A stretch of 63,914 nucleotides of DNA, filler included, from Collodictyon triciliatum (GCA_043381765.1; 8 parts of 8 records of this genome joined end to end with filler, not necessarily neighbours in it), one strand, 5' to 3'. Shown: positions 7,705-57,296, counted from the first letter of the whole stretch. Notes: generated by a model not told the origin, from the sequence alone. Program-made: numbers and translations.

Positions 7705-7970
7705 TCTTCTGTTCTCTTCTGTTCTCTTCTGTTGCTCTCTTGCTTCGACTTCCCGCTTCGCCTGGTGGTGATATTGAGTAGGTTGAGTTGCCAGCCGCGC
7801 TGGTAAGTCGGCCTTCCATATCGTCATGTTTTTAATTAGCAAATTGATATATAGTAATTATTTCAGTATCCAACATGACATTCACCTATTTTCGCAGGCA
7901 CAGTATGTATCATATTAATAAATCCCGCATTTAGATGCCACATTCGATTCAAATTTTAAAAAGACAAAAC

Positions 7971-13099: not shown

Positions 13100-14912
13100 T
13101 AACTATCCAGAATCGATGAGGGGCGTAATCGACAGAAGCATAAAGAGTTCAGGCTATTTGGAGCTGTGGAATAATGGGTTTCCTTTTTTCACCTATATCG
13201 ACAGAAAATTATTAATATATGATATAAGCGACATTTCATTACAAATATAGTATTCACAGTGTGCTTCGCTTTTGACCTGGTGGCTTTGGTTACAGTGAGA
13301 CTCTCAGAATCTTTATTCGCACGGCCTGTTGGTGGTAGGAATATTGGCATCTCAATTATCTAGTATAATTGAGGCAATGGAAAAAGACACGTTTAACAAG
13401 TATGGAGTATAAGGTATATCATCAAATGATTATTTTTTTTTAAAAAAAAAAAAAGGAGGGGATTAGGCAACTTTTTGTTTTACACTTGACAAACCTGATT
13501 GTTCGACAAGTCTAATATTTCAAGTTTGTGAAGTCGGTTGATTATCACAGGAATATTTGTCAGCTAGTTTAATACATTGATTTTACTGCTTACGTTGCCT
13601 GGTGTCACATACACAAGCTTTTCTAAAATACATTCATGGTATTGCTAAAGAAAAACCTTGTTGTTGGACAAATCAAGATGCGCTAGTGAAGAGATTAAAC
13701 AGATATTTTCAGGGAATTCCGCAAACTATGTATAAAGAAAAGTTTAAAGAGTACACCATAATGTAAAAAAAAGCATTATTAATCGTACACAATTTCTTCC
13801 TAGAGACAAGAATGTCAGATTCTGTAGCAGCGTTATATTCTCTGGTAATGATGCGAGGCCCATCCCATATAAACTCAACGATATGAATTTAATCTCTTGC
13901 ATGCTCGGTTTCCATTCCAACTCGGCTATCGAATCAATCTAAAGGAAAAATCTTTATCAAAGTATAGACAATACTTAAATACTAGAATTCAATACCGTAT
14001 CACAGAGCTTCAAACCACGGAGTTGTTTGTAGTCCTTAACTTTTTTATTACTCCAACACGGTATGTTTGTGATTCCATCGGGTGCCCTTTTAATTTCATG
14101 CAGTTCGGTTCCTTTTATCCATAGGTCTCTCAAATTAGTGAGCGCTGTGATTTGTGACGGCAGCTCTTCCAACTAAATATGCATCAGTGAGCTTTGAATC
14201 GAATAAAGGGGCGAAAAATATGCGGCAGTGAGATTGTTTTTCTTTCTCTCTTATCCTGTTTTGATTCTCATTTGCTTGCATGAGTTATAACTGGATAAAT
14301 TGTTATACGTCGGACTGTAAAAAAAATAAAATAATCTAACAACCATTCTTCACTTGAATCGAATAAAGGGGAAAAAACTGGATAAATTGTTACCAAATTG
14401 TCGCTCACATCGAGTTGTGTGATACTTGTCAAGCACGAGATCTCTGTTGGAAGCAATTCTAATAAATTGCACTGAACTTGAAGGTTCACAAGGTTGACAA
14501 GGCACGATATCCCCCTTGGTAGCAGGGACAACTTGTTGTTTGCGGCGTTTAGATCCTTTAGTGCTGTCAAACACGATATACCCGCAGGCAGTATAGATAT
14601 TTGATTGTTTTTAAGATAAAACTCCTTCATTCCGACAAGGCACGATATTTCTGAAGGCAAAGAGGACAACTGATTGTCCCCAATAAAAAGCCCATTGAGG
14701 CGAGTCAGTCGCGAGATCTCTGGAGGCAGGGACAATAGCTGATTCTCATACAGACCCAGCCGGACTAGTTTAGTCATCGAAAAAACCTCATGAGGCACAG
14801 AGGTCAGGCTCTTTCTGTCGAGATAAAGGATCGTCGGGCTTTCGTTGTCGGCGTTTTTGTGATCACCACCACGCCCTCTCGGCCCTTTAGCACCCGCGGA
14901 GCTGCTTGACAT
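13100..14912 (-). CDS. Leucine-rich-repeat protein (23-aa repeats), multi-exon; 3' end uncertain
   Basis: Exon 1 (14912-14394) carries tandem LxxLxLxxNxLxxLPxEI repeats; later exons LEELPSQITALTNLRDLWI, LASLPENITLLQNLTFLSLGRNC, FAEFPENICLISSLAHLDLSNNK, LTNIPVIINRLHKLEILDLSNNQ. Confidence 0.85.
14175..14232 (+). mobile_element. Ultra-short insertion (24 nt, 14192-14215) with 17-bp TSD
   Basis: AAATATGCATCAGTGAG [CTTTGAATCGAATAAAGGGGCGAA] AAATATGCGGCAGTGAG; 2 mismatches between the repeats. Confidence 0.7.
14289..14392 (+). mobile_element. Short insertion (70 nt, 14306-14375) with perfect 17-bp TSD
   Basis: AACTGGATAAATTGTTA [...CACTTGAATCGAATAAAGGGGAAAA] AACTGGATAAATTGTTA. Confidence 0.8.
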
Positions 14913-15807
14913 TTATGATTCTCCTGTTGTCTTGACGCCGATAGTCCTAGATGACAAAGTTCAATAATTGCTCTCAGTCGCTAGCACGTATTTTCGAAAC
15001 GGAGCTTTGGGGTACACGGGTTTAATGGCCGGTGGCATTGTGAGGGGATACCNNNNNNNNNNNNNNNNNNNNNNNNNNNNNNNNNNNNNNNNNNNNNNNN
15101 NNNNNNNNNNNNNNNNNNNNNNNNNNNNNNNNNNNNNNNNNNNNNNNNNNNNNNNNNNNNNNNNNNNNNNNNNNNNNNNNNNNNNNNNNNNNNNNNNNNN
15201 NNNNNNNNNNNNNNNNNNNNNNNNNNNNNNNNNNNNNNNNNNNNNNNNNNNNNNNNNNNNNNNNNNNNNNNNNNNNNNNNNNNNNNNNNNNNNNNNNNNN
15301 NNNNNNNNNNNNNNNNNNNNNNNNNNNNNNNNNNNNNNNNNNNNNNNNNNNNNNNNNNNNNNNNNNNNNNNNNNNNNNNNNNNNNNNNNNNNNNNNNNNN
15401 NNNNNNNNNNNNNNNNNNNNNNNNNNNNNNNNNNNNNNNNNNNNNNNNNNNNNNNNNNNNNNNNNNNNNNNNNNNNNNNNNNNNNNNNNNNNNNNNNNNN
15501 NNNNNNNNNNNNNNNNNNNNNNNNNNNNNNNNNNNNNNNNNNNNNNNNNNNNNNNNNNNNNNNNNNNNNNNNNNNNNNNNNNNNNNNNNNNNNNNNNNNN
15601 NNNNNNNNNNNNNNNNNNNNNNNNNNNNNNNNNNNNNNNNNNNNNNNNNNNNNNNNNNNNNNNNNNNNNNNNNNNNNNNNNNNNNNNNNNNNNNNNNNNN
15701 NNNNNNNNNNNNNNNNNNNNNNNNNNNNNNNNNNNNNNNNNNNNNNNNNNNNNNNNNNNNNNNNNNNNNNNNNNNNNNNNNNNNNNNNNNNNNNNNNNNN
15801 NNNNNNN

Positions 15808-16357
15808 GAGTCATCTCCACTATGGCACATGGCGCATTCTGGAGAAGTTGTTTCTGCATGGACTACGCGCGCACCTATCCACAGATCTCTGTTGGAGATA
15901 TTGAGAAGTAGGGTGCAGTGTTTCGGAAGTAACTGAGGTATGCGGGCTTGCTTCCAGCTTTTGACTATCGACAGGTCTATAATGCCTATAGTTTTGGCCC
16001 AACGGCTCATCTTCTCCGGTTTGTAGGGATTCGGACTGATGATTTTATATCGATATGACTTGGAGTAAGCCATGGCCATCGAGAATTGCGAATATTTGGG
16101 TGTAATGGACCGCCTTTGGTTCTTCAGGAGAAAGAAAAATGGCGACGGCGCTCTGTATGAGATGGGACGTCGTGAGAACCATTCTCCTTTGTTATTCAGG
16201 ATGGCTGCAGTTGGGGTTGCATTTGTAGAGTGGAATGTCGTTGCATTTTTCGGCGGTGCGAAGCTCCCATCCTTTTGGAATGTGACTTGTTGCAGGATGA
16301 AGGAGCTGTTTCCTTCTCTCGACTTGATGATACAGAAGCCTTTTGCTCTATCCCAGC
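15808..16357 (-). mobile_element. Non-LTR retrotransposon ORF2 fragment (C-terminal zf-RVT-like region), cut by gaps on both sides
   Basis: Intron-free frame open across the whole stretch, ending WKQARIPQLLPKHCTLLLNISNRDLWIGARV...SPECAMCHSGDDS. This matches the W..PK...L..G.R...CxxC layout of L1/Tx1-type RT zinc-binding regions. Bounded by an N gap and a contig break, as expected for a repeat. Confidence 0.65.
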
Positions 16358-16457
16358 NNNNNNNNNNNNNNNNNNNNNNNNNNNNNNNNNNNNNNNNNNN
16401 NTTAATTAATTAANNNNNNNNNNNNNNNNNNNNNNNNNNNNNNNNNNNNNNNNNNNN
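16358..16457. other. Artificial contig linker
   Basis: N44-TTAATTAATTAA-N44. Confidence 0.98.
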
Positions 16458-16459
16458 TT

Positions 16460-16520
<61 letters not shown>

Positions 16521-16642
16521 AACAACAACAACGCCATCAACCTCAGTTTCTGTTTTTTGCTGCTAAACAATATTGAAGAGGAAAACTTTAATTCTGCTGT
16601 GAAAAATTCAAATGATGGAATAATTGGTTTCTACAACAATAG

Positions 16643-19600
16643 CCTAGAGAAAGGTCAAACTCTATTGTTCCGACAAGAAGAAATGATGACCACCGGTTTA
16701 TATCGAAACGTGACAAGATTGCTCTCGAAATATACAAAACAGAATGTACATATGTAGCATCTCTGGAGAAACTTGTCAAGGTTCTATATGTTTCGATCAG
16801 GATATATTATTTATTTGATTTAGAAACAAAAATTATCACTGCAAAGTATCTATAGAAACGAATAGTCCCACTTTTTTTTTGAGCTTTCAAGTTATATGAA
16901 GAAATCATATGCTTAGATTTTCTATCGGCCCCTAAAAGAAATGGCTGCCCAGCCAAAACAAGACATAATTACAAGCAGGGTATGTAAAACCCATCTAGCT
17001 ACATCTGTTGATAGAAACCTTTTGTCAATTCCATCTATCGTTTGATTTATACTCATATCACCGCATACAATAAAACAAAACACGGCGTGATTTTATGGAT
17101 CAATAAACTAATAGTAATTATGACAACAACCCATCTTCTGACAGGAACTAGCAGAGATGTTTACAAACTTGGAAATGATATACGATTTTAATGTTAAATT
17201 TCGGGACTCAGTTGAGGAACGGATTAACGACTGGAGCATGGACCAGAAAATTGCGGATATATTTGTAACAATGGTAAGATTCATCAAATTGCTTTACACA
17301 AGTAGTTATTACAACTTTTTTTGGGCAATTAACAGTTTCTTAAAACCACTTACTATCATAGGGACCTTTCTTGAAGATGTACACGGTACTTTATTATTTA
17401 TATTTAAGGTTATATAACCATCCAAAATACCCAAATATTCAATTTAATTATAACACCACTAGCAATATGTGAATAACTATGAACAAGCATTATTGGTACT
17501 TAGTCGACTTCTACAAAAACCATCATTCTGCGGTGTAGTTCAGGTGATATGAATATAGTTGTTATTCTTTTGGAAATAAACATGAACAATCCAAATTACT
17601 TATGCATCGATGAATCGCCTCGTCTATTGAGGCTGCACTTACGAATATGTGAATTAGGAATTCGAACAAAAACCAGAATGTTGTGGGTTGACGCTGCAAG
17701 CCTTTATGATAATGCCAGTGCAGCGAGTGCCCAGATATGTTTTACTTTTGCAGGTACGTATTTAAATATCGTCATGGTACATACCATCAAATTGCAATAA
17801 ATAAATAAAAACACAAGTAGAATGAACAATAGTCAAATCAATTTCTAATTGCTTTTTGAAATATGAACATAAATCTACCCCTAGGAACTCCAAAAAAATA
17901 CGGACGTGTCCCATCCCGATTACTCTAAGCTGTCGACGGCATTTAAAATGATAAAGGAAATTGCAGACCAAATCAACGAGGTTATTTGGTGGCATGAATT
18001 TAAACTCATAACTGTCACAAAAGAAAATCATTTGTCATAAAATTTATTGCTCTACTTGGCTTTACTTGAGTTCAGCTAAAAATATCACCATCGTCAAGAA
18101 AATACGAGAGGACGAGAATGCTAGAAAGTTCTTCAGTATCCAACACCGACTTGTAGGATTCGATGTGAGTTCAGCAACATAATTACATGGAACTATATCT
18201 GAAGCAACTAATTGTACTAGATGATACACTATTCAGCTGCCTTGCAAAAAAATGTACTTAGCTATTTCTCAAATATCCCAATATCATCTTTCCTATTAAA
18301 TCTAATAGTATTTGATACAACCTCACCGCCGATTTCTTGGCGAATTGAAAATGGCTGTTGGAACCCGGGCGACTCGAAATGCGACAGAATTTTTCCTCTT
18401 CAACGACGTTTTAGTTTCCACAACATCGTAATTTTAAACACGTATACATATTTTAGACACCAGTTCGAAATAGCTATTCATTATTGGAACATATAACCAC
18501 GCATTATGTGTAATCTACGACTTTAAAATAGAATGAATTCATTTCTTCATTGTGAGACAGTATTTCCATTCCATGTGCTGTGGCTTCATGACCCTTATCC
18601 CGAACGTTTGTTTAACTGTCAAACAATTTTGAACCAACCCAAACTATATTAAAAGCCAAACAGTTCTTCATTCTTTGTGTTTTCTTTGAGAAATTAAAAA
18701 AAAAAACATGTGTTGACAAATGGTTTTCTGTAACTGTTATAGAACTTCATTTCGAAATTATATCACCGGAGAAGAAACTTGCCTTATACTCCTCATCTTG
18801 GGAAGAAAAGCAACATAATTACTCAAAGATATTCAACGCTGTGAAAGACCTGCTAGAAAAATCAGGAAGACATCCAGGTTAATATTTTATGCGGCGGTCA
18901 TAATTTTATTTACATTTGTTCTAGACAATTTATCCATTTCCTTTCATGTTTTCAAAATAGATGGTCCTAGAGAAGGCGAATTTTCATCGCTGACATTTGG
19001 GGTCTATAACGGAGAATGGCTCAATGCGAAGGCAATAGACGCTTTTTCACTAATCATTCAAATAAATAATAAATATGAGTATTTTTCTCTCCCCATATTT
19101 TCCATAGTTCTCTTTATTTTATTTTTTTGATAAACAATATGATTGAAATACGATTGCTATTATGAACCTATCCTCATTTCCAAATAACACTAATTATATT
19201 ATAGATGCACGGTAAAGGACGAATGGTTTATGTGAACGGCAATTTCTACCAAGGAGAATGGAAAGATGGTAAGAGAGCAAAATCCAAAATATGTTTGTTG
19301 GAGTTGGAGTTTTGTTTGACGTACATCGCACTCACTCTCGCCAGGTCGTCGGAAGGGACAAGGGCGGTTCATTATATGCACACCTGAGAATGTGATTTTA
19401 GAGGGAGAATGGGATGATGATAAACTAAGTACTACCATTTCTCATCTTAGGATACTAAAAATTACGTCACTTTCACATGCATTTTAGTAATTTTTCTCCT
19501 TGTATCAAATCAGATGGAGATGGAACTTTATCAATTTCCACAGGAATCAAATATATCGGCCAATGGGTGAATGGTCAACGCCAAGGAAAGGTAGTATCCA

Positions 19601-21607
19601 ACACCAGAGTTTTGGAATGAGTGTCTCTCGCCAAACATCCTTTTTCAGTGTGTTGCAAGGAATTAAAAATATTGTGCGATAACATCTGAGGAATAACATC
19701 TGTGTTGTATTCAGGGGAAAATACTCTATCCAGACGAAGAAGTGTTGTATGAAGGGGATTTTAAGGAAGGTGAATTTTTTTAAAATCAAGAAAAGCGAAG
19801 CAAAGCCCCCAACAATAGCTATGAGGTATACCAAGACCATGTTTTCTAAAAATCTTCTGCTTTTGTTTTCGCTTTCTTCAGGTAATTTCCACGGACAAGG
19901 AGCTCTAAAACTAAAGCAAGGAACATATTATACCGGAGAGTTCAACATGAGCTTGGTTTGTTCTTGCGCCATCATTCCAATATTCTTTCCATCTAAATGA
20001 TTGCGTTTTTTCTTTCATTGATCAAACTTTAACACAAGATATTCAAAATATCTTTATCCTTTCGCAGCGTCATGGGACTGGTACAATGAAAAACGATGAC
20101 GGTACATACGTAGGAGAGTGGGTGAACGACAAGAAAGAGGGAAAAGGCCGATTTGAATACCCAAATGGCGATGTATACGATGGAACTTTTAAAGATGATA
20201 TTGTAAGTACTATACATAAACAACATAGATATGCAGTTATATTTTCCTCCTCATTTGAATCTAATATCCCCGTATTAAATTCGAATAATTTAAGGTAATC
20301 CATAAGCACACACATAAGTTGTTTATATATAATCTATTCTCCCTCTTTTTCGATATTTATTTCTGCTGTAATGACCACCAGTTGCACGGTAATGGTTTGT
20401 ACCGCTTCTTCTCTGGGGTTGAATACAGCGGCCAATTTCACAGTGGGAAACTGGACGGTTCTGGAAAAATTTCGTATCCAAACGGCGATACATACACGGG
20501 TGATGTCAAAGACGGGCGGGTAACATTTCCATTGTGCAATGACTTATTTATTCGAAATCAAATTTTATTTGAAAGAAAGCTTGATTCCATGTGCAGTTTA
20601 TGCAAATAGTGTTTAACGGTCCTTATAGGTATATTTTGTATATCTTGATTTTTTCATACGTGTCCATCTTTGTACAGAGACACGGGTTTGGGCGGCTAGC
20701 TCGAAAGGACAAGAATTCGTACCTTGGGCAATGGACTTGTGACAAACGGGATGGAAAGGGGAAGCACACGTATTCAAATGGCGACCAATATGAAGGGTCG
20801 TGGAAAGATGACCAAGTAAGACTTTGCCACTTTTTTTCTTTTTGTCAAATAAACTCGTATTGATAAACCCACCAATCATGAACACATACTCATTAATGAT
20901 TCAATGATTTGTTTATCAATTTCATGAATGGTCTTGATGATTAAAAAATAAATTAAGACATGTTTTATGTGTCTATTATCTTGAAGTTTTATTGACCTTT
21001 TTTTCATTTATGGTACTATATATTTACCTTTTGAGTATATGTAATTCTATGTGAATATCTGGGATGGGTGATATGAGTAAATGCAATTTAGAGACATGGT
21101 AGCGGAATCTACAAATGGGCCAATGGCGGGTCGTTCATTGGGAGTTGGGCCAATGACAGGAAAGAAGGGAAGGGAGTGATGCAGTTCCGGTTGTCAGCAA
21201 CACCAGGCGAATTATTCGATTGGGAATACGAGGGGACATTCAAAGACGATAAGGTGAGAGTCGCATTTACGCTTCATTTAACAACACCATCTCATGTTTA
21301 TTCGAGGAGTATAATACATATAGTAATGATTAATATACATAATCGCAATTTCCGTTGAATAATTGATTGAATAATTGATTGAATAATTGATTGATTGACA
21401 TGACAGATGCACGGGCAAGGGACACTCAGATTCCCTGATGGCAGTCGGTATGAAGGAGGCTTCTGCAACGACCTTCGTGACGGACGCGGGACGCTCCACC
21501 CGCGATTCGGTGAGCCTGTGCAACAATCATGGAAGGATGGGGTTTTGACTCGCAGCTCAAACTCGATTCTTCTGTCCGAGTTGCAGACACTTCACCGTTT
21601 TTGCTGA
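16643..21607 (+). CDS. RhoGEF (DH)-PH-MORN repeat protein (alsin-like middle region), 5' end lost at contig start
   Basis: DH motifs KRDKIALEIYKTECTYVASL, GPFLKMYT/QYVNNYE, FMIMPVQRVPRYVLLLQ/ELQKNTDVSHPDY; then many MORN repeats (YQGEWKDG, YVGEWVNDKKEGKG, YEGSWKDDQ, YEGGFCNDLRDGRG). TGA at 21605-21607. Confidence 0.9.
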
Positions 21608-22758
21608 TGTGGATGTTTGGTTGTTTTTGCGTGCATTATGGCCCAAGGAGCAGACTGGCCAGATGAAAGGGCTACGGAGTTGGAGCCCATCCTTTCATGC
21701 TCTTTTTCCCCTCCTATCTCAGTGCCTTTTGTCTCGCCAACCTTTTTCCGTCTCCCCAATCACACACAAACAGCATGCCCTTCTTGTATCGTTTCCTTTC
21801 CTTCAATCCCGTCTGCACTCTCTCCTCCCAGTTCCCCCGCTTTTTTTCCTTGTTCTTTCCGATGATGCCGAAGGATATGAATAAATTCCAGGCCATGCAC
21901 AAGGACCATACTGAAGAAGACAGCGCTCTTGCAGCTGAGGTCTCTTTGTTTGCGTTTGTGCAGGAGCCGCCACCTGCTTCGGTGCCGCTTGTGAGGCTCT
22001 GGTGCAGACCTGAGTCCTCTGGAGTCGACGCGCCATCGCCGGCAGTCCCACGCGCATCGGGAATATTGAAGGGTTCGTCATGATTCAAATCGGCTATCGG
22101 CACGAACTCGGCGCACCCGTCCCAGACTGCCAGCGCACTCTTTCTCGTCTGCCTCTCGCTAAAGCTCCCAATGTCCTCTTGATAGCCTCGTGTGGAGTTC
22201 TAATGTCCCGAAACAACGACCATGTCTGCATTGCGGGCTTTCTAATTGGTTCCCTGTATTCTCTCACTTTGGCTGTCCGCGGAAACCAGATAATGGCCTG
22301 GTCCAATTACTTTTTTGTCCTCATCAACGCCCTCTGTTTGATTGCAAGATTCTTTTCTCTGTTTAATGGTTACCTTCCGTCCATGGCCTAGCGTTTCTCG
22401 TCATGCTGTCTAATTTACATCCTTGGTCTTCTGCTCGTGTTTGCGTGTGTCAAAATAGTCTTTTGAAAGAAATCAGGGTAGAAGAAATACAAAACAGAAA
22501 AAGGGAGTAGGGTATAAACAAACCAAGTTGCTGAATTTTGTACGACTGATATAAAGTGTGAATTATATATGTACAGATGCTATCATAAATTAACGTGTTT
22601 GTGCTCCGAGGTGAGTGAAATACACGATGGCCGAAAGGGGAGGGAATTGAAGCGGTTCGTTAACATTAATTTGAAGGAATGATGACTAGTTGCCTATTTT
22701 ATTAAGTGCATCCCATTAAAGTTTGCCGGGCACTTCCTTATTCTTTGCAGGACAGCCT

Positions 22759-24338
<1,580 letters not shown>

Positions 24339-24579
24339 CGAGTCCGGCTCTTCAGTATCACGCCTGATCACGACCCCTGACTATGCAACGCTGGTTTAGC
24401 GCAGTTGCGTCTTACTTTGTGGGAGCGGATTCCTTTGGTGAAGTATTTGGCCTTTTGTTTTAATATTTTTTGTTTTTGTTTTTTGTGTTTTTTTGTGTTT
24501 TTTTTTGTGTTTTTTTGTGTTTTTTTTTGTGTTTTTTTTGTTTTGTTGTTTTTTTGTTTTGTTGTTTTTTTGTTTTGTT

Positions 24580-24679
24580 NNNNNNNNNNNNNNNNNNNNN
24601 NNNNNNNNNNNNNNNNNNNNNNNTTAATTAATTAANNNNNNNNNNNNNNNNNNNNNNNNNNNNNNNNNNNNNNNNNNNN
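24580..24679. other. Artificial contig linker, flanked by T-rich microsatellites (about 24466-24579 and 24680-24790)
   Basis: N44-TTAATTAATTAA-N44. Confidence 0.98.
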
Positions 24680-24801
24680 CTTTTTTTCTCTTTTTTTCTC
24701 TTTTTTTCTCTTTTTTTCTCTTTTTTTCTCTTTTTTTCTCTTTTTTTCTCTTTTTTTCTCTTTTTTTCTCTTTTTTTCTCTTTTTCCTTTCTTCATTGAA
24801 G

Positions 24802-27800
24802 CCTACCGGATATACACTTAAGACAACCAACGTGAAGACGCCAATCCCTTTCTTGTTGAAGAACACTTTGCGAGAGTAAATTTTTTGATAACTAGTATTT
24901 CTATATCCGAAATATGTTTCTGTATGCATGTATATTCTCCTGTGTTGACCTGAGATATCTAAGATACCAACACGTTGGTCTTGACTGGTTGGTAAAGTGC
25001 TACGAAAAACAGCTAAATTGCATTCTTGCTGATGAAATGGGACTAGGTAATGGCATTCCTTCATAGTTGTTGCTCAGTAGCTTCTTTTTTTCTTTTTTCT
25101 TTTTTCGTTTCATCTTTTCGTATGTTTGGAAAAAAATTACCTTCATCAGCCGTAACACGTCAAGCACTTTTGTTCAAAATAGGAAAAACAATCATGACCA
25201 TATCCTTACTGGCACACTTGGCGTGTTCAGAGAAAATTTGGGGACCCCATCTCATAATCGTTCCTTCCTCGTAACCACTTTTCTCTCTGCTCAAAGGATG
25301 ATATATGTGTCTATATGAGGCCCTTTTTATATGTCTAACTTTCTTATTGACGCTAAATTGAATAATTAGTGTTTTGCTTAATTGGGAAATGGAGTTTAAA
25401 AGATGGTGCCCTGGCTTCAAAGTTATGACATACTTTGGAAACCCAAAAGAACGGAGACAAAAGAGGCAGGGATGGTCAAAACACAATTCATTTCGTATCC
25501 ACCAACTTTCGATATCTCGAAGCATATTATTTTATTTTATTTTATTATTTGCGCTGAACTGAGATTTTTATAAACTCGTTGTAAACTTTAACGGTAATAC
25601 CAAAAAAAAAAAAGATATTTGCATCACTTCATACACTGTTGTTCTTCAGGATTCTGGTGCATTTAGAAGAAAAAAATGGGCTTATATGATTCTAGATGAG
25701 GCTCACAATATAAAGAACTTCAAATCCCAAAGGTGGCAGACATTACTCCATTTCCAGACAAAACGTCGTCTGTTGCTTACAGGGACGCCACTGCAGAACA
25801 GTCTAATGGAGCTATGGTCTTTGATGCACTTCCTAATGCCAAACAGTAAGAAGAAATCCATAAAAAAAAAAAAATACGCTTTCACTTCAACATTTCCCTA
25901 TTGCCATGAGTTCATTTTATATTTTTTTTATCATATCATCTGCAAAGGTGACCAAACTTACACAAAGCATCAAATTGCCCATCTAATCAATTATTTCAAC
26001 ATTTCGCTTAGTTTTTCAGTCCCACAAAGAATTCAAGAGTTGGTTCTCAAATCCAGTCACAAACATGGTTGAGGGGAACGAATCTGTAAATGAAGATATT
26101 ATTCGTCGGTTGTATCAGGTTTTACGTCCGTTTTTACTTCGTCGACTCAAAAAAGATGTCGAAAAACAACTTCCTGACAAGCACGAGCACATTGTTTTAT
26201 GTCGCCTATCAAAGAGACAGCGATTTCTCTACGAAGAATGTGAGCACTATCTCCTTTTTTTTTTTAACTGTAAATAATAAAGTGTACTCTCACAAGTATA
26301 TACTCTGATAATTACAACATTCACTGAAAAATGTATGCATAAATATATTCACTGCTCAGTTATGGCCAGCTCATCGACCCAAGAAACGCTTGCATCTGGA
26401 CATTTGTTTGGAATCATCGGTGTTCTTATGCAACTGAGAAAAGTTTGTAATCACCCGGACTTGTTTGAGGCTCGCTCAATTATATCCTCCTTCGATATGG
26501 AAAGCATCGCGTATGGAACCAATTGCATATATGAGTTTATTGATAAGTTATTAGTATGCTTTAAGTCTGAGTCATTATAAAAATATTACGTTGCGTCTAA
26601 TTGCCTGTGATTATTTCAGATTCATTTCTAGCACACTATTCTTTACGGCTTTGGAGAGGACGCCCTATGATACACCAAACATAGGATTGCTCAATCTTCA
26701 TCTATCAGACTATGAGGTTATGACCACGTGGGATGCTGATTTAGCTATGACTTCTCAACCTAAGAGGCAGTTAATTGTGGAAATTGATGAGAAACTCACG
26801 TCGCCGATTCGCGCAAATTACTCATCACCTGTAGAATATTTCTGTGGCTTGACAAAGTATCGCGAACTAGTTCGGCTTAAAGAAAATCAGATTCGCGATG
26901 CCCGAATCAATTCTCTTCGGTGTTCGCGGAGACCTTTATTTGGTCTGAATTTGCGAGCATTAGTAAAAGTGGAAACAGTTCATGACTACCACATTCGAGC
27001 GCTCAACCCTCGGCGATACATGGAAACAAGCGATATCCTTTCATCAATGGTGATTTTTAAATTCAATTTATATTCTTGATTGTGAGGAATTTAGTGGGCT
27101 TTGACAACTCCTTCAGAATTCCATATTTAATTGATTTTTCCTGTTCCCTGATTTTTTTCATATATATACGCTTTGGAATTAGATTATTCCACTAGACAAG
27201 CGCATCCACGACGCTGGAGATTTAATCAAGAACTTTGTGTTTCTGACTCCTAAAGTCAGAGCCCGAGCACCTATTCCGATTATATCGAACATCAGGAAAA
27301 TTGAGGTCTCAACTCCCCTATATGAATTTCATTTGCATCCCTAGTTTATCCTAATCATTAAAAAAAAAAAAAACTTGTCATCGTCATCTGTTTTTTCTCA
27401 AATAGGAACGCTTCCCATTCTCACAGCAGCTCAAAGCCAAGTCGTTTATTCAACCGTTTGGTGATTTGCTTGCTCCAATCATTGTCCGAGGGCAAGTATG
27501 TATACAATTACAGTTGGTATTTTATTCCTCAGCCACATTCCTCTCGTTTTCTAAACGATACATTTATCAAATGTTGCTCTTCAGGTGTTTTTTCCAGACA
27601 AGAGACTTTTGCAGTACGATTGTGGAAAACTTCAAGCACTTTCTGAGTTACTTCACACTTTGAAAGTAGAAGGGCATCGTTGTCTTATCTTTACTCAGAT
27701 GACTAAGATGCTCGATATCCTTGAGGAATTTCTCAATATCCACGGGCACACCTATTTGCGTCTGGACGGCTCGACGAAGATTGATCAGCGCCAGATATTG

Positions 27801-30800
27801 ATGGACCGATTCAACAATAACAAGAAAATATTCCTGTTCATTCTTTCCACTAGGAGTGGTGGCATAGGTGTTAATCTGACGGGGGCTGATACGGTCATAT
27901 TCTATGACAGTGATTGGAATCCCTCGATGGATGCCCAGGTGATAAGCCTATAGAAATTTGACGCCCAATGAACGAAACTGATTGTCAGCTGTTTCTTTCG
28001 CTATTGCAGTTATATCATTGGCATTTTATTTGTGTGTGTATCAAGTTTTTGTGGACATACGTGCCTATTAGAAATACTAATAATATTATCTGCGTAATTA
28101 TGAAGGCCCAAGACCGTTGTCATCGTATCGGCCAGACAAGAGAAGTTCATATATATCGGCTTGTGACAGAGAAAACGGTGGAGGAAAATATCATAAAGAA
28201 AGCCAACCAGAAGCGGTCACTAGACCACGTCGTGACTGCAGGGGACTTTACCACAGACTTTTTTTCGCAAACGGATCTGAAGGATTTCTTCCAGACAGCA
28301 CAACCATCAAGAGCATCATCCATGTATGAGTCAGTTACCAAAAGAAAAAATTGACATGCGGTCTTTCAAAAGCTTATTTGAAAGATTAGCACCACGAAAA
28401 TAATAGAATCGCTAATTTTAATTGTGTTTACAAAATGCTCTAGGATTGACCAACCAACATCAAAGCTGTCATTGCAGGATTGGGAGGCTGCTGTTTGTAA
28501 TGTCGAGGACCAGGATGATGTAGCAGGTTCTCCTCGTTTCCTCTTTTTTCTTTTTTTTCTTTTTTTTCTTTTTTTTCTTTTTTTTCTTTTTTTTCTTTTT
28601 TTTCTTTTTTTTCTTTTTTTTCTTTTTTTTCTTTTTTTTCTTTTTTTCTTTTTCTTTTTTATACTGATGTATCTGTTATGTATAGACAAAAGAAAATTGT
28701 AATCCAGGGTAAGCTGATGTTTTAATTATTTATTGTTTTTTTATTCTTCCTTTCTTTAATTATTTATTGTATTCACTGTATTTATTAGCGTTCCAGCAAG
28801 CCAGAGGCGAAATTGCCAAAGAACTGGATGAATTCAACGAGAGCATCCCCATAAGGGTAGGAACGTGTTTAATCGCACACACGCCAGCTCTGTTCTCTCT
28901 GACCTTTCCCTTGATGCAGCAGCAAGAGGACGATTCATTAAACGTCTCGACACACACAACCACGAGAGAGGCGTCTGATGACCCTCGTTCGTGCCAAAAA
29001 TCTGAACCCACCGAATTTGACATCATCAAATCGAGACTGACTCCTGTGCAAAGGTTTCTGATTTTTCCTTCTCTTTCGTTTTAGTGTCAGTCTTCAGTTT
29101 GTGGGTGTTATTGTGCTCATGTAATGAAATGTTTCATTTTCTCAACCTTTCTTTGTAATCAGATACGCCCTTGGCTTTCTTCAATGCGATTACCCTGGCG
29201 AATCCGATGAAAGAGCTGCTGCTGGTTACTCTCACGACGAATGGGACATTGATCATGTTGAACGGCTGAGGCATGAGCAGCTCAAAATCGGTGAAGTCGA
29301 GGAAGTGACTTCATATCAGGTGTGATTGATATTTCACATTAGGTAGTTTTCTACCTTCTTATATTTCGACATTGTGCTTTACCTAGAAGTATATAATGCA
29401 TAGCGTAATTAGCTTCAACGAAGCTTTAGCTACTTCATGTTATACCTCGTTGTGTAGTATTCATTGGTTGACCCGACTAGCTTTAGGTGTGTAACCCAAG
29501 CCAGGAGGTCCGCGACGGTCACTGGGAATCCTGCAACCTTCATGAGGACGAAATTCACCATCTTGTCAAAGAACAGATTCCCAGCGACCTTCGCATAAAT
29601 CCAAATGTATTTTTATATAACCCACCTGATTATTCGGAACAAGAAGTGTATATATCGAAAGAACCTGTCTGGTTGTCCAGAATTCAAGAAGCATTCATTA
29701 GTAATACAGATGTATGGGAGAATGATTTTTATCCAAAGGTATTTAATTGATGTTTTATTTGTCATAAATTTTCTGTAACTTATACATATATAAATAGATA
29801 AAAAAAAATCTCCCTTTTTTTTGAGACATCTGATTGGAGTCTTTATTTTATTTATTTTTTGTATCGATTTATGTTGCTTTTTTTCCCCCCTTTGTTCGAT
29901 TCAATTTTGTATTGACCTATGGTAATCCTTTATCCTAAAATGTGAAACCACCCCACCTTTCAGCCCGATGACTATTTGCTACCTGCGGATTCTTCCGTTC
30001 CTGTCGTCAGCACAGAGGCGCCGCCACCATCACAAGACAGAAATGTGCCCAAGCAGGGTATTTTAAATTCATCTTTATCTTTACTTGGAACTGGTGGTTA
30101 TTTTCGTACATAAAAGAAAGCTTCAAAACCATATTCTTATTTCCTATATTGTCGCCAACATTGATTCTAAAAACATCTTATATTTACTACTCTCTTGTTT
30201 GGCGTCTGCAGAAAAGTAAGCAATTTTTCAACAGTCTTATATATCTGTTTATATATTCAAAGTTTGAACGGTGCCATGTTTAATTCAACATGCTCATATT
30301 ATTCGCTCCCACTGCTGTGTGTGTGTCTGAAGAGTGCGTAAGCAGAAACAGCGGAAGGCAACATCCCCATCGCGTAATATCGGGATGGAATATAATTTCA
30401 ACGCGCAACAGTGGACTGCAGAAGAGGAGAGCACTTTGCTTCAGGTTGCACAATCCACAAATCCAGTGAACTGGGACCTTGTTGCAATCACTCTGATGGC
30501 AAAAGTCCCCGTGATTGGGCGGCAGCACATAGCAAAATCGGTGCAAGAGCGTTGGAAGAAACTTCAGGAAACGTTGAAACCGTCTGAACCTACTGTGTCG
30601 ACTGTCCCATATGTGAATCCGACGTCATCGACTTTCTCGCTCCAAGTGCGCAATCAGAAGATAACCAGCATCATAGACATCTCCATGAAGTCAAGGAAGC
30701 CATCGCTCTTGCTGATGAAACCAAATGGTATAAATACCAATTTTCCTTCTTTTTCTTTTTCTCTTCTTTTTTCTCTTCTTTTTTCTCTTCTTTTTTCTCT

Positions 30801-32676: not shown

Positions 32677-32800
32677 TAACTTTTTTCCCTTTTTTTTCTC
32701 TCTTTTTTTTCTCTCTTTTTTTTCTCTCTTTTTTTTCTCTCTTTTTTTTCTCTCTTTTTTTTCTCTCTTTTTTTTCTCTCTTTTTTTTCTCTCTTTTTTT

Positions 32801-32900
32801 NNNNNNNNNNNNNNNNNNNNNNNNNNNNNNNNNNNNNNNNNNNNTTAATTAATTAANNNNNNNNNNNNNNNNNNNNNNNNNNNNNNNNNNNNNNNNNNNN
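32801..32900. other. Artificial contig linker
   Basis: N44-TTAATTAATTAA-N44. Confidence 0.98.
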
Positions 32901-32985
<85 letters not shown>

Positions 32986-33164
32986 TCTTTGCGTTCGTTT
33001 CTTTGTGATTCATGTCCTTGTTTTAAAGCCAAAATGGGTGTAGGATTCTCGACTCCAAAATGGTTTCATGGCTGCGGATGGAGCTAAGAAACACAGTAAA
33101 AGGGGTCAAATAATGATAAGCACAGATAGGCTCGGACAAGGGAAAAAAAAAGGCATATGAATAA

Positions 33165-33255
33165 GCTTATCGATGTAGCTATTTTTTTTTTTTTTTTATT
33201 CTTCCTCTCAATTTTGTGCAGGATGGTGGAGATGTTGGCTTATCGATGTAGCTAT
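33165..33255 (-). mobile_element. 55-nt poly(A)-tailed retro-insertion with perfect 18-bp TSD
   Basis: Minus strand: ATAGCTACATCGATAAGC [CAACATCTCCACCATCCTGCACAAAATTGAGAGGAAGAAT-poly(A)] ATAGCTACATCGATAAGC, preceded by TTTTT. Confidence 0.8.
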
Positions 33256-33317
33256 AAAAAATACGTGCAGTTCATTGCAAGGGATGGTATACCTTCCATC
33301 GTATATGCCAGCAGACT

Positions 33318-36300
33318 CTACTTTGCCTTCCACTTGTCCGCCCTCCTTGCATCCTTCTCCACTCCCCATCCGTTCCTGTAGCATTCACTCAAAATCGCGC
33401 ATGCTTTCGGGTGCTTTGGATTTCCCCAGTCTCGCATCTCTGCGAATTCTTTAAGCGCATTAAAAGCGTCCTGACAGTTTTCCTGCGCCAGACGCTTCAG
33501 CTCGTCAAAGTTTTCAGTCTTGGAATACCACTCGGTCGCCTTTTTCAGGTTGATAACGACACCAAGACCACGTTCGTAAGACTCGGCCACTTTGTTTGAC
33601 TGGAACTTTGTGTGCTTTCCCTTCTCACAGAACTTGATAAAGTCTTCGTCAAAGAAAGCGGCGCCCTTCGAGAGCAGAATCTTTTTGCTCGCCTCGCTCA
33701 GGTTCAGCACCCCACGGCATATCATCTCTCCACCTTCCAGCCTTTGGGCTTCGCCGCTTGATGCCTGCTTGGACTGGCGGTTCTTTATCTTCCGTCCGAT
33801 CTCCACATCCCAGACATAAATAAGCTTGTCGTCTGTAACAGAGACCAACCAGACCTCTCCATTCGGACCAGTGGCTGTGGCCATGCGACTCAATTGTCTT
33901 CCGCTTCCCTCCAGTCTCTTCGTCATGCCCCCATTCACCAGGTCCCAAAGGCAGATTGAGAACTCGTCGCCTGAAAACGCTATCCATCTTTCTCCTTTCG
34001 GTCCATTTATGCCACATATGACGCGAGCCCCAGGCTCCGATAGGTTGAGAACGTCTGGTTCATCGTGAGTAATTGGATTCCAAACACCGACTGTAAGGTC
34101 CGAGAGAGGGAACACAATAAGGTCCTCACCTTTTGGTCCCTTAATTGCAGCTGAAGATGTTACTGAGGTAGAAAGCTTGTTGTACATCTTGACCATTGCC
34201 CCGGTATTGATGTCCCATATGCGGATGCTTTTATCCGCACCTCCAGAGGCCAGCCAGTTTTCTCCATTGGGACCGCGAATCCACCCGAGATGGTAGACGA
34301 ACCCTACGTGACCTTGCAAAACTTTCACCTGATTCCCAGTGAGTACGTCCCATAGCCGAATGGTTGCATCTCGGCTGCTAGAGGCCAGCCAGGTCTCTCC
34401 GGCGGGGCCCTGGACGGCACATAGTCCGTTGACATAGTTGGAGTGGCCTTTCAAGATTTTAACCTCTTTTCCAGTCGACACACTCCAAAGGCGAACCGTG
34501 TCGTCTCTACTCCCAGAAGCTATAAGCGTCTCTCCACTCGCCCCTTCCACACAACAGATGATGTTGATAAAATCAGAATGTCCTCGGAAGGTTCTTACTT
34601 CCCTCTTTGTGAGTAAATCAAACACACGTACAGTATTGTCATTGCTCCCAGATGCCACCCAGCATTGCCCATTCGGACCCCGGAGCCCAACGATGCAACG
34701 AATGGCCTCCGAGTGTCCGGCAATCGCGGTGTGAGGAATGCCAAACTCAATGTCTTTCATGTTGGCGAAGTTGAATGTGCAATTGCCGAGATACGTATTT
34801 GTAAAGTTGACCCCTGTTAAATCTGCACCCGTCAGATCTGCTTTATGGAGGATGGATCGAGTCAGATTGGCGTAAGGTATCTTGATGTTTGTGAGGTCCA
34901 TCCCATTGAAGGAGACATTCATAAAATTGAGAAGCGTGATGGCATTTGATGCGGCTTGTGATTTAGTCTCGTCGCTTCGTGACATATAAACGATATTGAA
35001 GAGGTTAGGGATGATCTGGTCTCGATCGAGACTGGTGTCCTCCGCAACTCCCTCGACGTGTGTCTCGATAAATTTTCTGTACTGGGTGAACTCATAGGGC
35101 TCCTTGATTATCCCAGCTAGTTTGTAATGGATAGAAAGATATTCGCATCCAACTAGAGTTCGGTCGTGTATCCAGCCGAGTTGTGCAGTCATCTTTTCAT
35201 TCATCTTTGTCCAAAACTGCACTCCTTCGTGGAAGAGCTTCTGTTCTTTGAGGAATGAATCAAGCATTTTTAAAGCAGCCCAGGTGTTCCATCCTTCAAG
35301 AGTAGATGTCTTGATGTAGCTTTCAATCATCGCTTTATATAGCTGAATGACAGGTTCGTGCAAAAATTTACTTCTCATCATTTTCCCCAACATTATGATT
35401 TGGTTCATGTCAGTCAGTGACATTATCGTGTTTGTCGCCTTCCGGATTTTTGCTGCTTGTTGAAAGTACTCTTGACATTGGGCATCGCTGGTTATGTAAA
35501 GAGAAAGGGGATCAGAAAAAAAACTATTTATCAACACAACTTTATGTATTAATAGTGATGATGTTTCTTTCTTTTAAAAAAACTTGGAATTTTGTTATAT
35601 TGCCAGGACTGTGATGATATTTTACGTTACATATTGTAAATTTACTTCATTAATACTTGACATTGTGTAGGATATGGAGATGGGGGAGACATGAATAATA
35701 CACTTGTAAACAAAAAAAAAAAACTAGCAAAGCAAACAAATTAAAAAAAAAAAAAAGGATAGAGGGTGTGGCTTTCGGTTATTAATCCTTGTAACTTACC
35801 ATTGAAGTGAATAATTTGCTCTTCCTATATTTTCGAGGGATGTAGCAACATCGGGGTGGTCGTATCCAAGTGTTCGTCGGCGGATTTCGAGTGTTTTCGT
35901 GAACATTTTCAAACTTTCAAAATACCTGATATACACATAATGAAGTGGATTGGTTTTATGCGGTTTGCAAGTACTTCCTTGATTTTTATGTCCACATTTT
36001 AATCGATGCAAAAGCATTTTTAACCCATATGCATTCAAAATATAATTTCCTGTTTTTTCTTTCTTGAAAGGTTCAACAAGGTTTTATCGAATGGCAAAGC
36101 TAAAATTACTCTTTCGCATCGTAGTTGATTATTCCGATACTTTCGTAGGTGTTGACAACATTTGGATGATTCTCACTCAAAGTTTGTGTAAATATTTCTA
36201 ATGATGATGTTAACATTGGCAGAGCCAAAGAATTCCTGGTAAATTGATAATAATATCAGAAATCTTACTTCATCTACGTCAACTTGCATACAGCTATTTT

Positions 36301-39300: not shown

Positions 39301-40652
39301 GGCTGAATGAAATTTTCACCGAATTGATTTTATTAATACCTGTATCGCCCGCCTTTCCGAGAATCATCTCCATTTGGACTTCGCTCAACTTTTTATCGTA
39401 TCGACCAAGGAACGCAGACGTCCCTTCAGATATCTCTTCGTTTGTAAGTTTCGAAACTGGAATCAATTTCAATCCAAATCTCTCAGCGACCTTTAAAAAA
39501 AAACATTATATTTGGGAGATGTAATTTAAATATTATCATATATCCAGTCTTCAAAACTATATATGAAAATGTTGTGACTTTTCTTAATTTTTTTATCTTC
39601 AACGGTATTGCATCGCGCATCGTCAAATGATCGAACAATTTGAGGTATTTGGGAGATAGCCCACCTTGCACGAAACATGAGTATCAATTGTCGACACTAC
39701 CAACCCGATATTTTCTGGGGTTTTCTTGGGCAGCCATGTCAGAAGATGAGGTACCGGAGTTTCTTGAGAAGGATATATCTGATTGATGGCATCAATCAAA
39801 AAGACATACTTCTTTGACCTGTAGATAAATTATAAGTAAATATATGTAAATTAAGGAAAGATTTATCCATGGAGAGCACCCAAAATATAAACGAAAACGA
39901 AATATGGTTAAGGAGAACCAAAAGGTATGTAGCCATGTAAACCTGTTATTTAAGAAAAATCTTACAATTTCTTTGATTCTATCAAATTAAAGAGCCCTTG
40001 AATTCCCTCCTTCTGAAAATCTGAGTCTTTTTTTTTAAAAAAATTATTGCAATCAGAAAATTGCCGTAAAATTTTAAGAATACAAGTGAGATATATTATA
40101 GATATGATGCAATAATGGGTAATATTTTCTTTCCTTTATTCGATTTAAAGTGTAGCGAATGTAAGAATGGGTAATATTAAACAGGTGGGTAACTACCATC
40201 ATTATCTCGCAACTCCGCACTGAACGCATCATCGGAATTCAGCACCATCCTCCAAAAGCGAATCGAAATGCTACGCAAGTATTTTGTTTCATTTAAAAAT
40301 ATCACAAAGGGTATGCAATTTCCGAATTTTCAAAGGACCCTGTTTAATAATGATAATTTTTTGGTTTCCTTTCACTTTATTGACATGATTGAGAAGGGCT
40401 TGATGGGTGATGGCGATAATGATAATGATAATGGTAAAGTATGAATAAAAATTTAATAAAGGGAGCCCTATACCTTTCGACATAGTTGCTGAGATTTGTG
40501 CAGCCGACAAAGTGGTAAATCACAAACATGTCAGAGTCTTTTAAGGCGCGCAAGTCTCTCACGGTGGCCGCCATGAGCGATGATTTTCCTATTCCTGATT
40601 CTGCCGCTAAGACAGTAATCTTGATTTCTGTACCACTGAACATGTCCAAGAC
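33318..40652 (-). CDS. NACHT/STAND NTPase (NPHP3/TEP1-like) - TPR - pentapeptide - WD40 - SEL1 protein; 5' end lost
   Basis: Walker A AESGIGKSSLMA, Walker B region FLIDAINQ...WLPKKTP...VVST, GHPLYLRLVLDEIRVFG; TPRs (KKVGSEHPLMASSFTNMG, RTLGYDHPDVATSLENIG) spliced in frame to a 2170-nt terminal exon (35487-33318) with AASNAITLL...ADLTGADLTG, seven WD40 repeats and SEL1-like repeats. Confidence 0.9.
39172..39255. repeat. 12-bp minisatellite (GAGAGTCAAGAT/GAGAGTCACGAT) x7 in a NACHT-gene intron
   Basis: Visible directly. Confidence 0.9.
40114..40178 (-). mobile_element. Ultra-short insertion (39 nt, 40127-40165) with perfect 13-bp TSD in a NACHT-gene intron
   Basis: Minus strand: AATATTACCCATT [CTTACATTCGCTACACTTTAAATCGAATAAAGGAAAGAA] AATATTACCCATT. 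Confidence 0.75.
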
Positions 40653-40888
40653 CTATAAAATGTGCTACTTAGAATGAGGGGTTTGCAGGGGTTTTTTTTA
40701 GTGAGATATCCATTTCCCTTGTTTGGTAAGGAGATGCAATTATATATTTCAATTTTTGCAAGATATGAGGAAAAAATCTTTGATTTCATCTGATTTCGGA
40801 CGATGAAAAGAAAATTATTAAAAAAAAATAAAATTAAATTAATTTAAGCAATGGTTGACCCAGAATGCATCAAATGTTTTTCGGTTTA

Positions 40889-40927
40889 TGATTATTATTA
40901 TTATTATTATAATTATTATTATTATTA

Positions 40928-40989
<62 letters not shown>

Positions 40990-41228
40990 GTTATTATTAT
41001 TATTATTGTTATTATNNNNNNNNNNNNNNNNNNNNNNNNNNNNNNNNNNNNNNNNNNNNTTAATTAATTAANNNNNNNNNNNNNNNNNNNNNNNNNNNNN
41101 NNNNNNNNNNNNNNNTACATACATACATACATACATACATACATACATACATACATACATACATACATACATACATACATACATACATACATACATACAT
41201 ACATACATACATACATACATACATACAT
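40889..41228. repeat. (ATT)n and (TACA)n microsatellites on either side of the artificial linker at 41016-41115
   Basis: Visible directly. Confidence 0.95.
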
Positions 41229-55187: not shown

Positions 55188-57296
55188 TTACGAAATGGTA
55201 CATGGGTATTGCACCTCAGGATGTGTCTTGAGCTTTTGCAAATGCTGGTAAGCCTGGGGAGACAGCGGAGATATTTTGAGTGCCTGTTGCATATACTTCA
55301 CTGCCTCGTTTGGTCTGTTTTGGAGGTTGTGTAGCACCCCGAGCTGCACATAAGCAGTAGCGTCGTTGGGCTCGATGGAAATGGCCTTGCGTTGAATATT
55401 TGTATTTATTGAATGAGAACCCTATACTTTTGCATGCGAATGGAATAGGAAATAATTATAATCTTAAAATATAACCAACCTTCTGCAGAGTCTGGACTGC
55501 GTTTTCATAGTCACCTTTAAACATTTACATTAAGCGAGTGTTATTTGTGCTTGCTATATGATATTATTTCGCTCTTTCACATTCAAATGCGCATCACAGA
55601 TCAGGACACACTGATTTGATTGATAAATAATACCTATCTTCATGTACGACTCTGCCAGATAAATGAATTGCTTATGCGAAGAAAAATCAGAAGCGCACTT
55701 TTTGAGATATTCGATGGCTTTTTCATGCTCATTTCTCGTGCATAGGATGATTCCTAGTCCCTCAGATGCTGTTGTATTTTTGTGATCTAGCTGTGTGTCC
55801 CAATTAATTTCAATATTTAAATTGTGATGCAGTTATGAATAATATCGCAACTATTCAATCAAATGTAAGAGAAAGAAGGCTGCATATTTGTGACTTGCTT
55901 GCAGCGATTTTCTGTAATATGATTCCGCTTCGTCCCACTTAAGAGCTTGTCTATGGGCGTTTCCCAGATTTGCATATAACTATTAACCATGTGCATTATT
56001 TTAACAATAATCAAAGTAAAGGTAAAAATACGTTATTTATTTATTTATTGAGCATACGAATATTTTAATCATAAATAGATGATTATGGAGTATATACCAG
56101 AGAATAAAAAATATAAAACAATTTAGTTTGTGCCATTTATTATCATTGTTATTTTAAAATAACCTGGGCCAAGTCTAACGGGTGGAATCTTAGAGCATCA
56201 TTCAAATGTTTAATTGCCTCTCTTTCTAGTACCTCTGCTTCCACTCGATATATTCTTCCCAATCCTTCAAATCCAGCAGAATTTTGAGGAAATAGTTTAC
56301 ATACTTCTTGAAAAACAATGATGGCATCCTGTTAAACATCCAATTATGAGTATTAGTTACGGGTGAATCTTTTTTTCACAACTTTTGGCCATGTGAAGAT
56401 CCAATATAAATAAAAAAAAAAGACTGTGCTGCGTCTATATTACTTTGAGTCGCCCAGCAGCTATAAAGCAATCGCCTAATGCGACTCTGGACTTGATGTC
56501 ATCCGAGTCAATTGAGACAGACCTTTGATACTCTGCTATTGCATTTTCAAAAAGCTTCTGTTTTAAAAGACAATCACCGATTTGTAAGTGAAGGCCAGAC
56601 TCAATCTTGTACAAGGTTTCGTCGTCCTTTGGGACTTCATTCAGCAAGAGAAAATAGGCCATGGAAGATGATTGAAACGGGTTCCATTTGGATGTATTTT
56701 CAAAAGAATCAAATCTATCCAAATAATTGTTACAAACTCTCTTTGTTAGAATCTGCTGGCTTTTTATGCAAGATGGATATGAAATGTATTAGAATAATTA
56801 TACAATAAGAAATCATACTTTTTGAGAGCAAATAGAGCTTCTTTATACAACGACTCCGCTTCCTCATATTTTCTTGTCTGCATTCTCACTTCACCCATCA
56901 CGATTAGGACACTGATTTCGCCTATACAAATAAAACATATTCTATCTAACATGTATAGTACGTTGCTTTGATAGTGTATTGATGTAGAAGACATCATTAG
57001 AAAATTGTTTCATGGAGATTATTATAACCTTTCGCACCCTGAATAATATTTTTCTTTTTCACGTAAAGTGTATGTCACCAAATCGCATAAAACAAACCAA
57101 GGTTTTCCTTTATTCGATTCAAAAAACAAAAAAACAAACCAGGGTTATTCTCAATGCAGGATGCTCCAACATAATCTGCCTTTTCGAAATCAGCATTATA
57201 AACCAGCCATTTTAGATACAACAAAACGGCAGGATAGAAGTCAGGCTCTATCTCCAGAGCACGCTCAATATGAGATGCACTTGGTCTCCATTCCCC
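55188..57296 (-). CDS. Tetratricopeptide-repeat protein; 5' end lost at contig break, 3' end tentative
   Basis: Exons encode IERALEIEPDFYPA, MGEVRMQTRKYEEAESLYKEAL, IGDCLLKQKLFENAIAEYQRSVSID, LYANLGNAHRQALKWDEAESYYRKSLQ, AISIEPNDATAYVQLG...MQQALKISP. Confidence 0.85.
57089..57146 (-). mobile_element. Ultra-short insertion (26 nt, 57105-57130) with 16-bp TSD that includes a splice donor
   Basis: Minus strand: AACCCTG|GTTTGTTTT [TTTGTTTTTTGAATCGAATAAAGGAA] AACCTTGGTTTGTTTT; 1 mismatch between the repeats. Confidence 0.72.

Follow-up and report, generated by a model that had tools for sequence, protein, structure and literature searches.

Two families of very short inserts lie dispersed among the genes of Collodictyon triciliatum in the DNA analysed here, and we consider them likely to be dead-on-arrival stubs of two lineages of poly(A)-type non-LTR (long terminal repeat) retrotransposons, that is, of long interspersed nuclear elements (LINEs), left behind through target-primed reverse transcription. 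The window, by which we mean the whole stretch analysed (63,914 bases, from GCA_043381765.1), joins eight contigs of about 8.1 kb each (6.4 kb for the last one) and contains 62,274 bases other than N. It holds ten copies, six of a family with a 16-nt tag at its 3' end (family A) and four of a family with another tag (family B), which are found on both strands and on six contigs. Nine of the ten copies are bracketed by direct repeats of 12-20 bp, with 0-4 mismatches, that differ by site and have the variable length of target-site duplications; in all nine, an A-rich or G/A tail adjoins the downstream repeat. The element-derived part spans about 12 to 64 nt. Both the mechanism and the 5' truncation are textbook features, and the extreme shortness of the copies is the sole unusual one; otherwise, this is a routine footprint of transposable elements.

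Family A is defined by a 16-mer that a first-pass annotation of this DNA had placed six times on five contigs. All six copies were recovered at those positions and strands: when up to two mismatches were allowed, the window gave 6 matches against 0.09 expected, a number reached in none of 100 shuffles. The tag is exact at 14194 (+), 14354 (+) and 57107 (-), and it has one substitution at 29889 (-) and at 40133 (-). The copy at 23955-23970 (-) shows two substitutions in an ungapped comparison, which amount to one deleted A. In this family the 16-mer forms the 3' end and is followed by a short G/A run. The annotation had also described five copies lying between site-specific direct repeats, and the present analysis bears this out, with repeats of 16-20 bp around five of the six copies and inserts of 24, 70, 31 (or 29), 32 (or 39) and 26 nt.

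The first copy, A1 (14175-14232, + strand), has its left duplication at 14175-14191, its insert at 14192-14215 and its right duplication at 14216-14232; the repeat is of 17 bp with 2 mismatches, it starts with an A preceded by T, and the 24-nt insert is made up of 2 nt, the exact 16-mer and a G/A tail. The neighbouring A2 (14289-14392, + strand; left duplication 14289-14305, insert 14306-14375, right duplication 14376-14392) has a perfect 17-bp repeat, again at a T|A step, and an exact tag within an insert of 70 nt, the longest of the family. In A4 (29857-29923, - strand) the left duplication is at 29905-29923, the insert at 29876-29904 and the right duplication at 29857-29875. Its repeat can be read as 19 bp with 4 mismatches and a 29-nt insert, which then begins exactly at the 16-mer, or as 17 bp with 3 mismatches and a 31-nt insert; the tag has one substitution and the duplication starts at T|A. 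Two versions are also available for A5 (40107-40178, - strand; left duplication 40159-40178, insert 40127-40158, right duplication 40107-40126), namely 20 bp with 2 mismatches around 32 nt or 13 bp without mismatches around 39 nt, with one tag substitution and a T|A start. The last copy, A6 (57089-57146, - strand; left duplication 57131-57146, insert 57105-57130, right duplication 57089-57104), has a 16-bp repeat with 1 mismatch, an exact tag and a T|A start; within its 26-nt insert is a filler of 8 nt in which the end of its duplication recurs. A3 (23955-23970, - strand) is the tag with the deleted A, and the best repeat in its flanks is of 7 bp.

To judge the flanking repeats, 1500 random positions of the window were scored identically. 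A repeat score of 11 was reached by 4.0% of them, mostly at microsatellites, and a score of 8 by 21%. Four of the six family A copies are at or above 11 (11, 17, 14 and 13; binomial P = 3.6e-5), so the excess over background that the annotation had left to be checked is present in this window.

Family B was absent from the earlier finding. When the window was scanned for direct repeats of good complexity at short range, seven pairs emerged. Two of them were family A copies, one consisted of two neighbouring tags, two were coding repeats (LRR and WD40), and the remaining two enclosed new inserts (39 and 55 nt long) ending in AATAAA plus 8 and 15 A. The two new inserts led to a purine-rich core of 17 nt, in which AATAAA runs into a pure A tail of 6-15 A, with 4 exact matches in the window against 0 expected. 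All four copies are bracketed by duplications, in this case of 12-18 bp. B1 (12501-12575, + strand; left duplication 12501-12518, insert 12519-12557, right duplication 12558-12575) has an 18-bp repeat with 2 mismatches, an exact core and a 39-nt insert ending in 8 A. B2 (33165-33255, - strand; left duplication 33238-33255, insert 33183-33237, right duplication 33165-33182) is the longest copy, with a perfect 18-bp repeat starting at T|A and an insert of 55 nt that ends in 15 A; its core is an exact match as counted under the R position. B3 (43125-43174, + strand; left duplication 43125-43136, insert 43137-43162, right duplication 43163-43174) combines an exact core in a 26-nt insert with the weakest duplication of the set, 12 bp with 1 mismatch. 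The shortest copy is B4 (28721-28770, - strand; left duplication 28755-28770, insert 28737-28754, right duplication 28721-28736), whose perfect 16-bp repeat starts at T|A and encloses only 18 nt, that is, 12 nt of the element, with an exact core, and the A run. The inserts of family B, of 18, 26, 39 and 55 nt, form a nested series with one common 3' end. The alignment between B1 and B2 extends beyond the core, over 31 columns, with a score that none of 2000 shuffles attained.

The polarity of the copies was analysed independently of the tags. Among all A runs of 7-40 nt in the window, the arrangement in which a tail is followed by the duplication occurs four times, corresponding to three B copies and to the other-strand reading of A6, and the mirror arrangement, with the A run on the opposite side, does not occur at all. 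In family A the tails that abut the downstream duplication take the looser form of short G/A runs. In addition, 7 of the 9 flanked copies have a T immediately before the duplication and 8 of 9 have an A as its first base. For the five flanked copies of family A this agrees with the T|A start previously claimed, given the 19-bp version at 29889. The preference for T has P = 0.045 when compared with T among non-A bases, or 0.005 against the overall T frequency, in nine copies only. AT-rich targets are common to other LINE clades besides L1. From this anatomy we infer an RNA intermediate, full-length parent elements and an enzyme class, namely an L1-like, apurinic-type (APE) endonuclease. The element endonuclease would nick one DNA strand, usually after T and before A, and the freed 3' end would act as primer for a copy of the element RNA, made inwards from the 3' tail. 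Copying would end after only about 12-64 nt, the second strand would be cut 12-20 bp away and the short cDNA would be joined in, so that the tail end of the element would come to lie between two copies of the target. The earlier proposal of target-primed retroelement stubs is supported by all the tests run in the window and strengthened by family B with its true poly(A) tails, except that the parental reverse transcriptase and endonuclease open reading frames (ORFs) were not seen there.

The same features bear on two other origins. Capture without an endonuclease, in which fragments of transcript cDNA or of DNA are patched into breaks by end joining or by repair of the polymerase-theta type, would agree with the very short inserts and with the 8-nt filler of A6, which repeats the adjacent target as happens at end-joined junctions. 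However, such repair would not create target duplications of 12-20 bp, and it explains neither the placement of the tail in 9 of 9 copies nor the T|A preference in 7 of 9, and we regard it as improbable. Even less credit, practically none, can be given to a miniature DNA transposon (MITE). Such an element would be small and have duplications at its flanks, but here the duplications vary in length between 12 and 20 bp, the copies have only the 3' end in common, with its A-rich tail, and terminal inverted repeats are lacking, with 1-4 matches out of 10 at the ends and a single 7 out of 10 due to a T run.

A more serious competitor of the LINE stubs is a dedicated, very short non-autonomous retroposon, either similar to short interspersed nuclear elements (SINEs) or derived from a processed 3' RNA fragment, which would be mobilised in trans. 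Its template would measure about 20-70 nt and carry a 3' tag recognised by a LINE, and the copies would be near full length. This would account for the fact that 10 of 10 copies have 70 nt or less. Furthermore, in three of the five flanked copies of family A (A1, A4 and, possibly, A6) the start of the element part coincides with that of the 16-mer or is at most 2 nt away from it, and such a start could mark a discrete 5' end of an RNA. On the other hand, the 5' ends are not fixed, the element parts of about 12 to 64 nt being nested in both families. In the whole window, no tRNA gene was found by ARAGORN and no Rfam family reached its gathering score, and there is no SINE-type head of the RNA polymerase III kind (tRNA, 7SL or 5S). 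The four inserts that were folded gave no stable RNA structure (z-scores from +1.44 to -0.60), so nothing suggests that the tags are a structured recognition module. Taken together, a dedicated retroposon appears unlikely, though it is the alternative to which we give most weight.

Returning to truncated LINEs, both families combine a common 3' end with variable 5' truncation, a nesting that in family A amounts to 3-7 nt only: A5 and A2 have that many further upstream nucleotides in common, and beyond them only A2 extends. The 16-nt "core" first described owes its length to A1, A4 and possibly A6, because these begin at or near the start of the 16-mer. The sequence 5' of the core differs between copies, as had been remarked, mostly because truncation at or near the core leaves target DNA in that place. 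It follows from the range of the element parts that the deposit of only the last 16-20 nt, as originally proposed, is too narrow. When additional or longer copies were looked for by fuzzy matching and by BLAST, only noise from A-rich tracts and a partial match at 7938-7952 (-) came up. This match comprises the first 11 nt of the 16-mer beside a contig-end microsatellite, with neither duplication nor tail, and may be due to chance or represent a diverged or partial copy. The window scan revealed no other tailed, duplication-flanked inserts and no tail-only stubs beyond families A and B; therefore, the process is specific to these two tags.

Several observations weigh against the interpretation of these copies as LINE stubs. 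The sample consists of nine flanked copies, none of the copies exceeds 70 nt in 62 kb, and no reverse transcriptase or endonuclease domain was detected among the 252 frames scanned; the upstream extension into a reverse transcriptase ORF or a SINE head that had been envisaged was searched for in the window and not encountered. A3 has no recognisable duplication, and the repeat score of A4 is 8, a level met by 21% of the random sites; taken by itself, the duplication of A4 is weak, and it gains its credit from the likeness to the other copies. The tails of family A are short and contain G, unlike a classical poly(A) tail, and the regions upstream of the tag in this family have no significant mutual similarity (p >= 0.70). 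A resemblance between families A and B, in a CAC...TTGA...GAATAAA frame, is visible and not significant (p = 0.12-0.20), so that homology between them is no more than suggestive. Moreover, long repeat copies may have been kept out of the contigs, the assembly being fragmented; yet at 13 of the 16 contig ends there is a microsatellite or a long homopolymer (of up to about 80 T), which indicates that the assembly breaks at low-complexity DNA and not at dispersed repeats. A 21-nt tag had no match in bacterial and archaeal genomes, a result that was expected and is uninformative.

With respect to genes, the copies had been described as always lying in introns. This can be maintained for 23955 (A3) and 57107 (A6), which read as intronic, between GT...AG limits and open frames. 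A3 occupies the middle of some 215 nt that have GTAAC...TTACAG as their limits and an open frame of the same strand on either side; the gene around it may be Bud32-like, to judge from its translation, and Pfam had no match for that frame. The copies at 29889 (A4) and 40133 (A5) occupy non-coding stretches within gene bodies, the former antisense to a SNF2/SRCAP-like gene on the + strand and the latter on the same strand as the P-loop/TPR/WD40 gene of its contig. In contrast, 14354 (A2) and 14194 (A1) may belong to terminal coding sequence or to a 3' untranslated region rather than to an intron. A2 falls among the final 45 codons of an LRR frame of 214 codons (14271-14912, - strand), antisense to it, and A1 lies just past the stop of the LRR frame, which runs on the opposite strand. 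The A2 insert plus one duplication measures 87 nt, and the LRR frame stays open and gains 29 codons. As far as can be judged from the sequence, this event may have supplied additional codons or given rise to a small intron. In the antisense reading, the A2 insert has an acceptor-like site, its long T tract being closed by ACAG, and a GGTAAC donor-like site is contained in the duplication.

The duplication of A6 covers the apparent end of an exon and a GTTTGT donor-like site of a TPR gene on the same strand, and the donor sequence is therefore present twice. The two donor copies are 42 nt apart, a multiple of three. B2 lies 63 nt beyond the end of a same-strand WD40 frame of 751 codons. B3 is antisense and a few nucleotides upstream of the TTTACAG acceptor-like site of a - strand frame, and B4, also antisense, lies upstream of a TTCCAG acceptor-like site of the SNF2/SRCAP-like gene, at a distance of about 25 nt. 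Both of them add pyrimidine-rich sequence beside acceptor-like sites, and their positions would fit an A-rich target on the opposite strand. A3, B4, B3 and A6 are found inside longer GT...AG stretches, and the edges of the inserts do not appear to be those of whole introns.

These locations could recall a conserved intronic cis-element, not mobile and kept by selection for splicing, polyadenylation or regulation. The tag contains AATAAA, its complement is rich in pyrimidines, and two antisense B copies adjoin acceptor-like sites. Nevertheless, the copies have both orientations relative to their host genes and varied positions, and every flanked copy is bracketed by its own duplicated target. 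The divergence of the duplications (0-4 mismatches) parallels that of the tags (0-2), as expected for neutral decay after insertion and without any sign of constraint. Such an element is, in our opinion, very improbable.

The density of copies is one per 6.2 kb (ten in 62,274 non-N bases), which, with family B included, comes to about one per 6 kb instead of the roughly one per 10 kb estimated previously. Together, the nine flanked copies contribute 472 nt, which is 0.76% of the sequence. Since the stubs make up less than 1% of the bases in the sample, they do not rank among the main sources of intron length, and the suggestion that they could be a major driver of intron growth is not supported here. 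At the level of one gene, a single event adds 35-90 nt to an intron of 60-200 nt, a splice site can become duplicated, and an affected short intron can grow by half or more.

It is possible, but on balance doubtful, that the LINE machinery of this organism almost always aborts after a few dozen nucleotides and that stubs of 18-70 nt are its main genomic product. If so, with about one of them in every 6 kb of genic DNA, they would be a constant source of mutation for very short introns, including the duplication of splice sites and the placing of antisense pyrimidine tracts beside acceptors, and they would form a class missed by standard annotation. The stub-only length distribution may be genome-wide, or it may be a by-product of sampling the small contigs of a fragmented assembly. 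If it holds genome-wide, it would offer a natural case of near-obligate abortive reverse transcription and would help to ask what limits the processivity of LINEs, whether the enzyme, decay of the template or host factors; repeat annotation would then be missing thousands of real insertions that fall below its thresholds.

Regarding the sample itself, the contigs are joined by 44 N, a 12-nt stop linker and another 44 N, and there are two internal N gaps besides. The GC content per contig is 34-44%. Low-complexity contig ends were recorded at 1, 8132, 8233, 16458, 24579, 24680, 32800, 32901, 41015, 41116, 49227, 49328 and 57439. The open frames show ordinary eukaryotic genes split by short GT...AG introns. 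The domain scan took 252 of the 324 open frames of at least 70 aa, 72 being left out for X or low complexity, and Pfam identified Tsr1, SRP54, a GOST-type membrane protein, an LRR protein, a RhoGEF/MORN protein, the SNF2/SRCAP-like helicase, the P-loop/TPR/WD40 protein, a TPR protein and an ABCA transporter. In sequence comparisons of single exons, a conserved one of the helicase had matches of 70-81% in many eukaryotes, one of Tsr1 was 82% identical to a protein from a transcriptome, and a less conserved exon had no match within the length limits applied. The 751-codon frame mentioned above (33321-35573, - strand) has WD40 repeats, a pentapeptide repeat and a Sel1 repeat, and upstream of it, on the same strand and up to about 40650, there are TPR frames and a P-loop frame; this succession of WD40/Sel1, TPR and P-loop frames from 33321 to about 40650 is an NLR-like architecture. 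The direct repeats at 14428-14729 and 34245-34400 were rejected as target duplications, being coding LRR and WD40 units with spacings of 138 and about 135 nt.

When compared with known systems, the copies come closest to LINEs of the L1 clade. In family B, AATAAA runs into the A tail, and the consensus 3' end of L1 is likewise AATAAA plus an A tail. The differences are that all ten copies have here 18-70 nt, that family A ends in a short G/A tail, and that there is no ORF-bearing copy in the window, so that the L1 clade would be a tentative assignment. Variable duplications of about 7-20 bp, a probable nicking of the T|A type, variable 5' truncation, a common 3' end and occasional filler or microhomology at the 5' junction are features in common with the L1 insertions described in the sections consulted of two reports (PMC11702581, PMC3219598). 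For human L1, the first of these gives 5' truncation, duplications of 12-18 bp and microhomology at 5' junctions, and a median of 712 bp for experimental insertions (PMC11702581).

A literature search with the 16-mer and its complement returned no papers, and no stub-dominated LINE family with copies essentially all below 100 nt was found among titles and the beginnings of abstracts, which is no proof that none is in print. The nearest precedent is a de novo insertion in NF1 consisting only of poly(T), which was interpreted, according to the part of the source consulted, as a severely truncated Alu, L1 or processed pseudogene (PMC3219598) and which implies that target-primed reverse transcription can abort almost at once. 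However, the human tail-only insertions are rare single events, whereas here stubs with two tags, at about one per 6 kb, are the only class seen and tail-only stubs were not found in the window. SINEs and LINE/SINE pairs also provide short, duplication-flanked units that carry the 3' end of a partner LINE, but a head of the RNA polymerase III type, a fixed 5' end and a structured 3' module are all lacking in the present copies. Finally, introners are, like these inserts, short intragenic mobile sequences, and non-LTR retrotransposons account for about 5% of their classified families in the portion of the work consulted (PMC12130899). The likeness extends to the duplications, which in two of our copies overlap a donor-like site; in contrast to introners, which form whole introns, the copies described here are placed within longer intron-like stretches or at the ends of genes.

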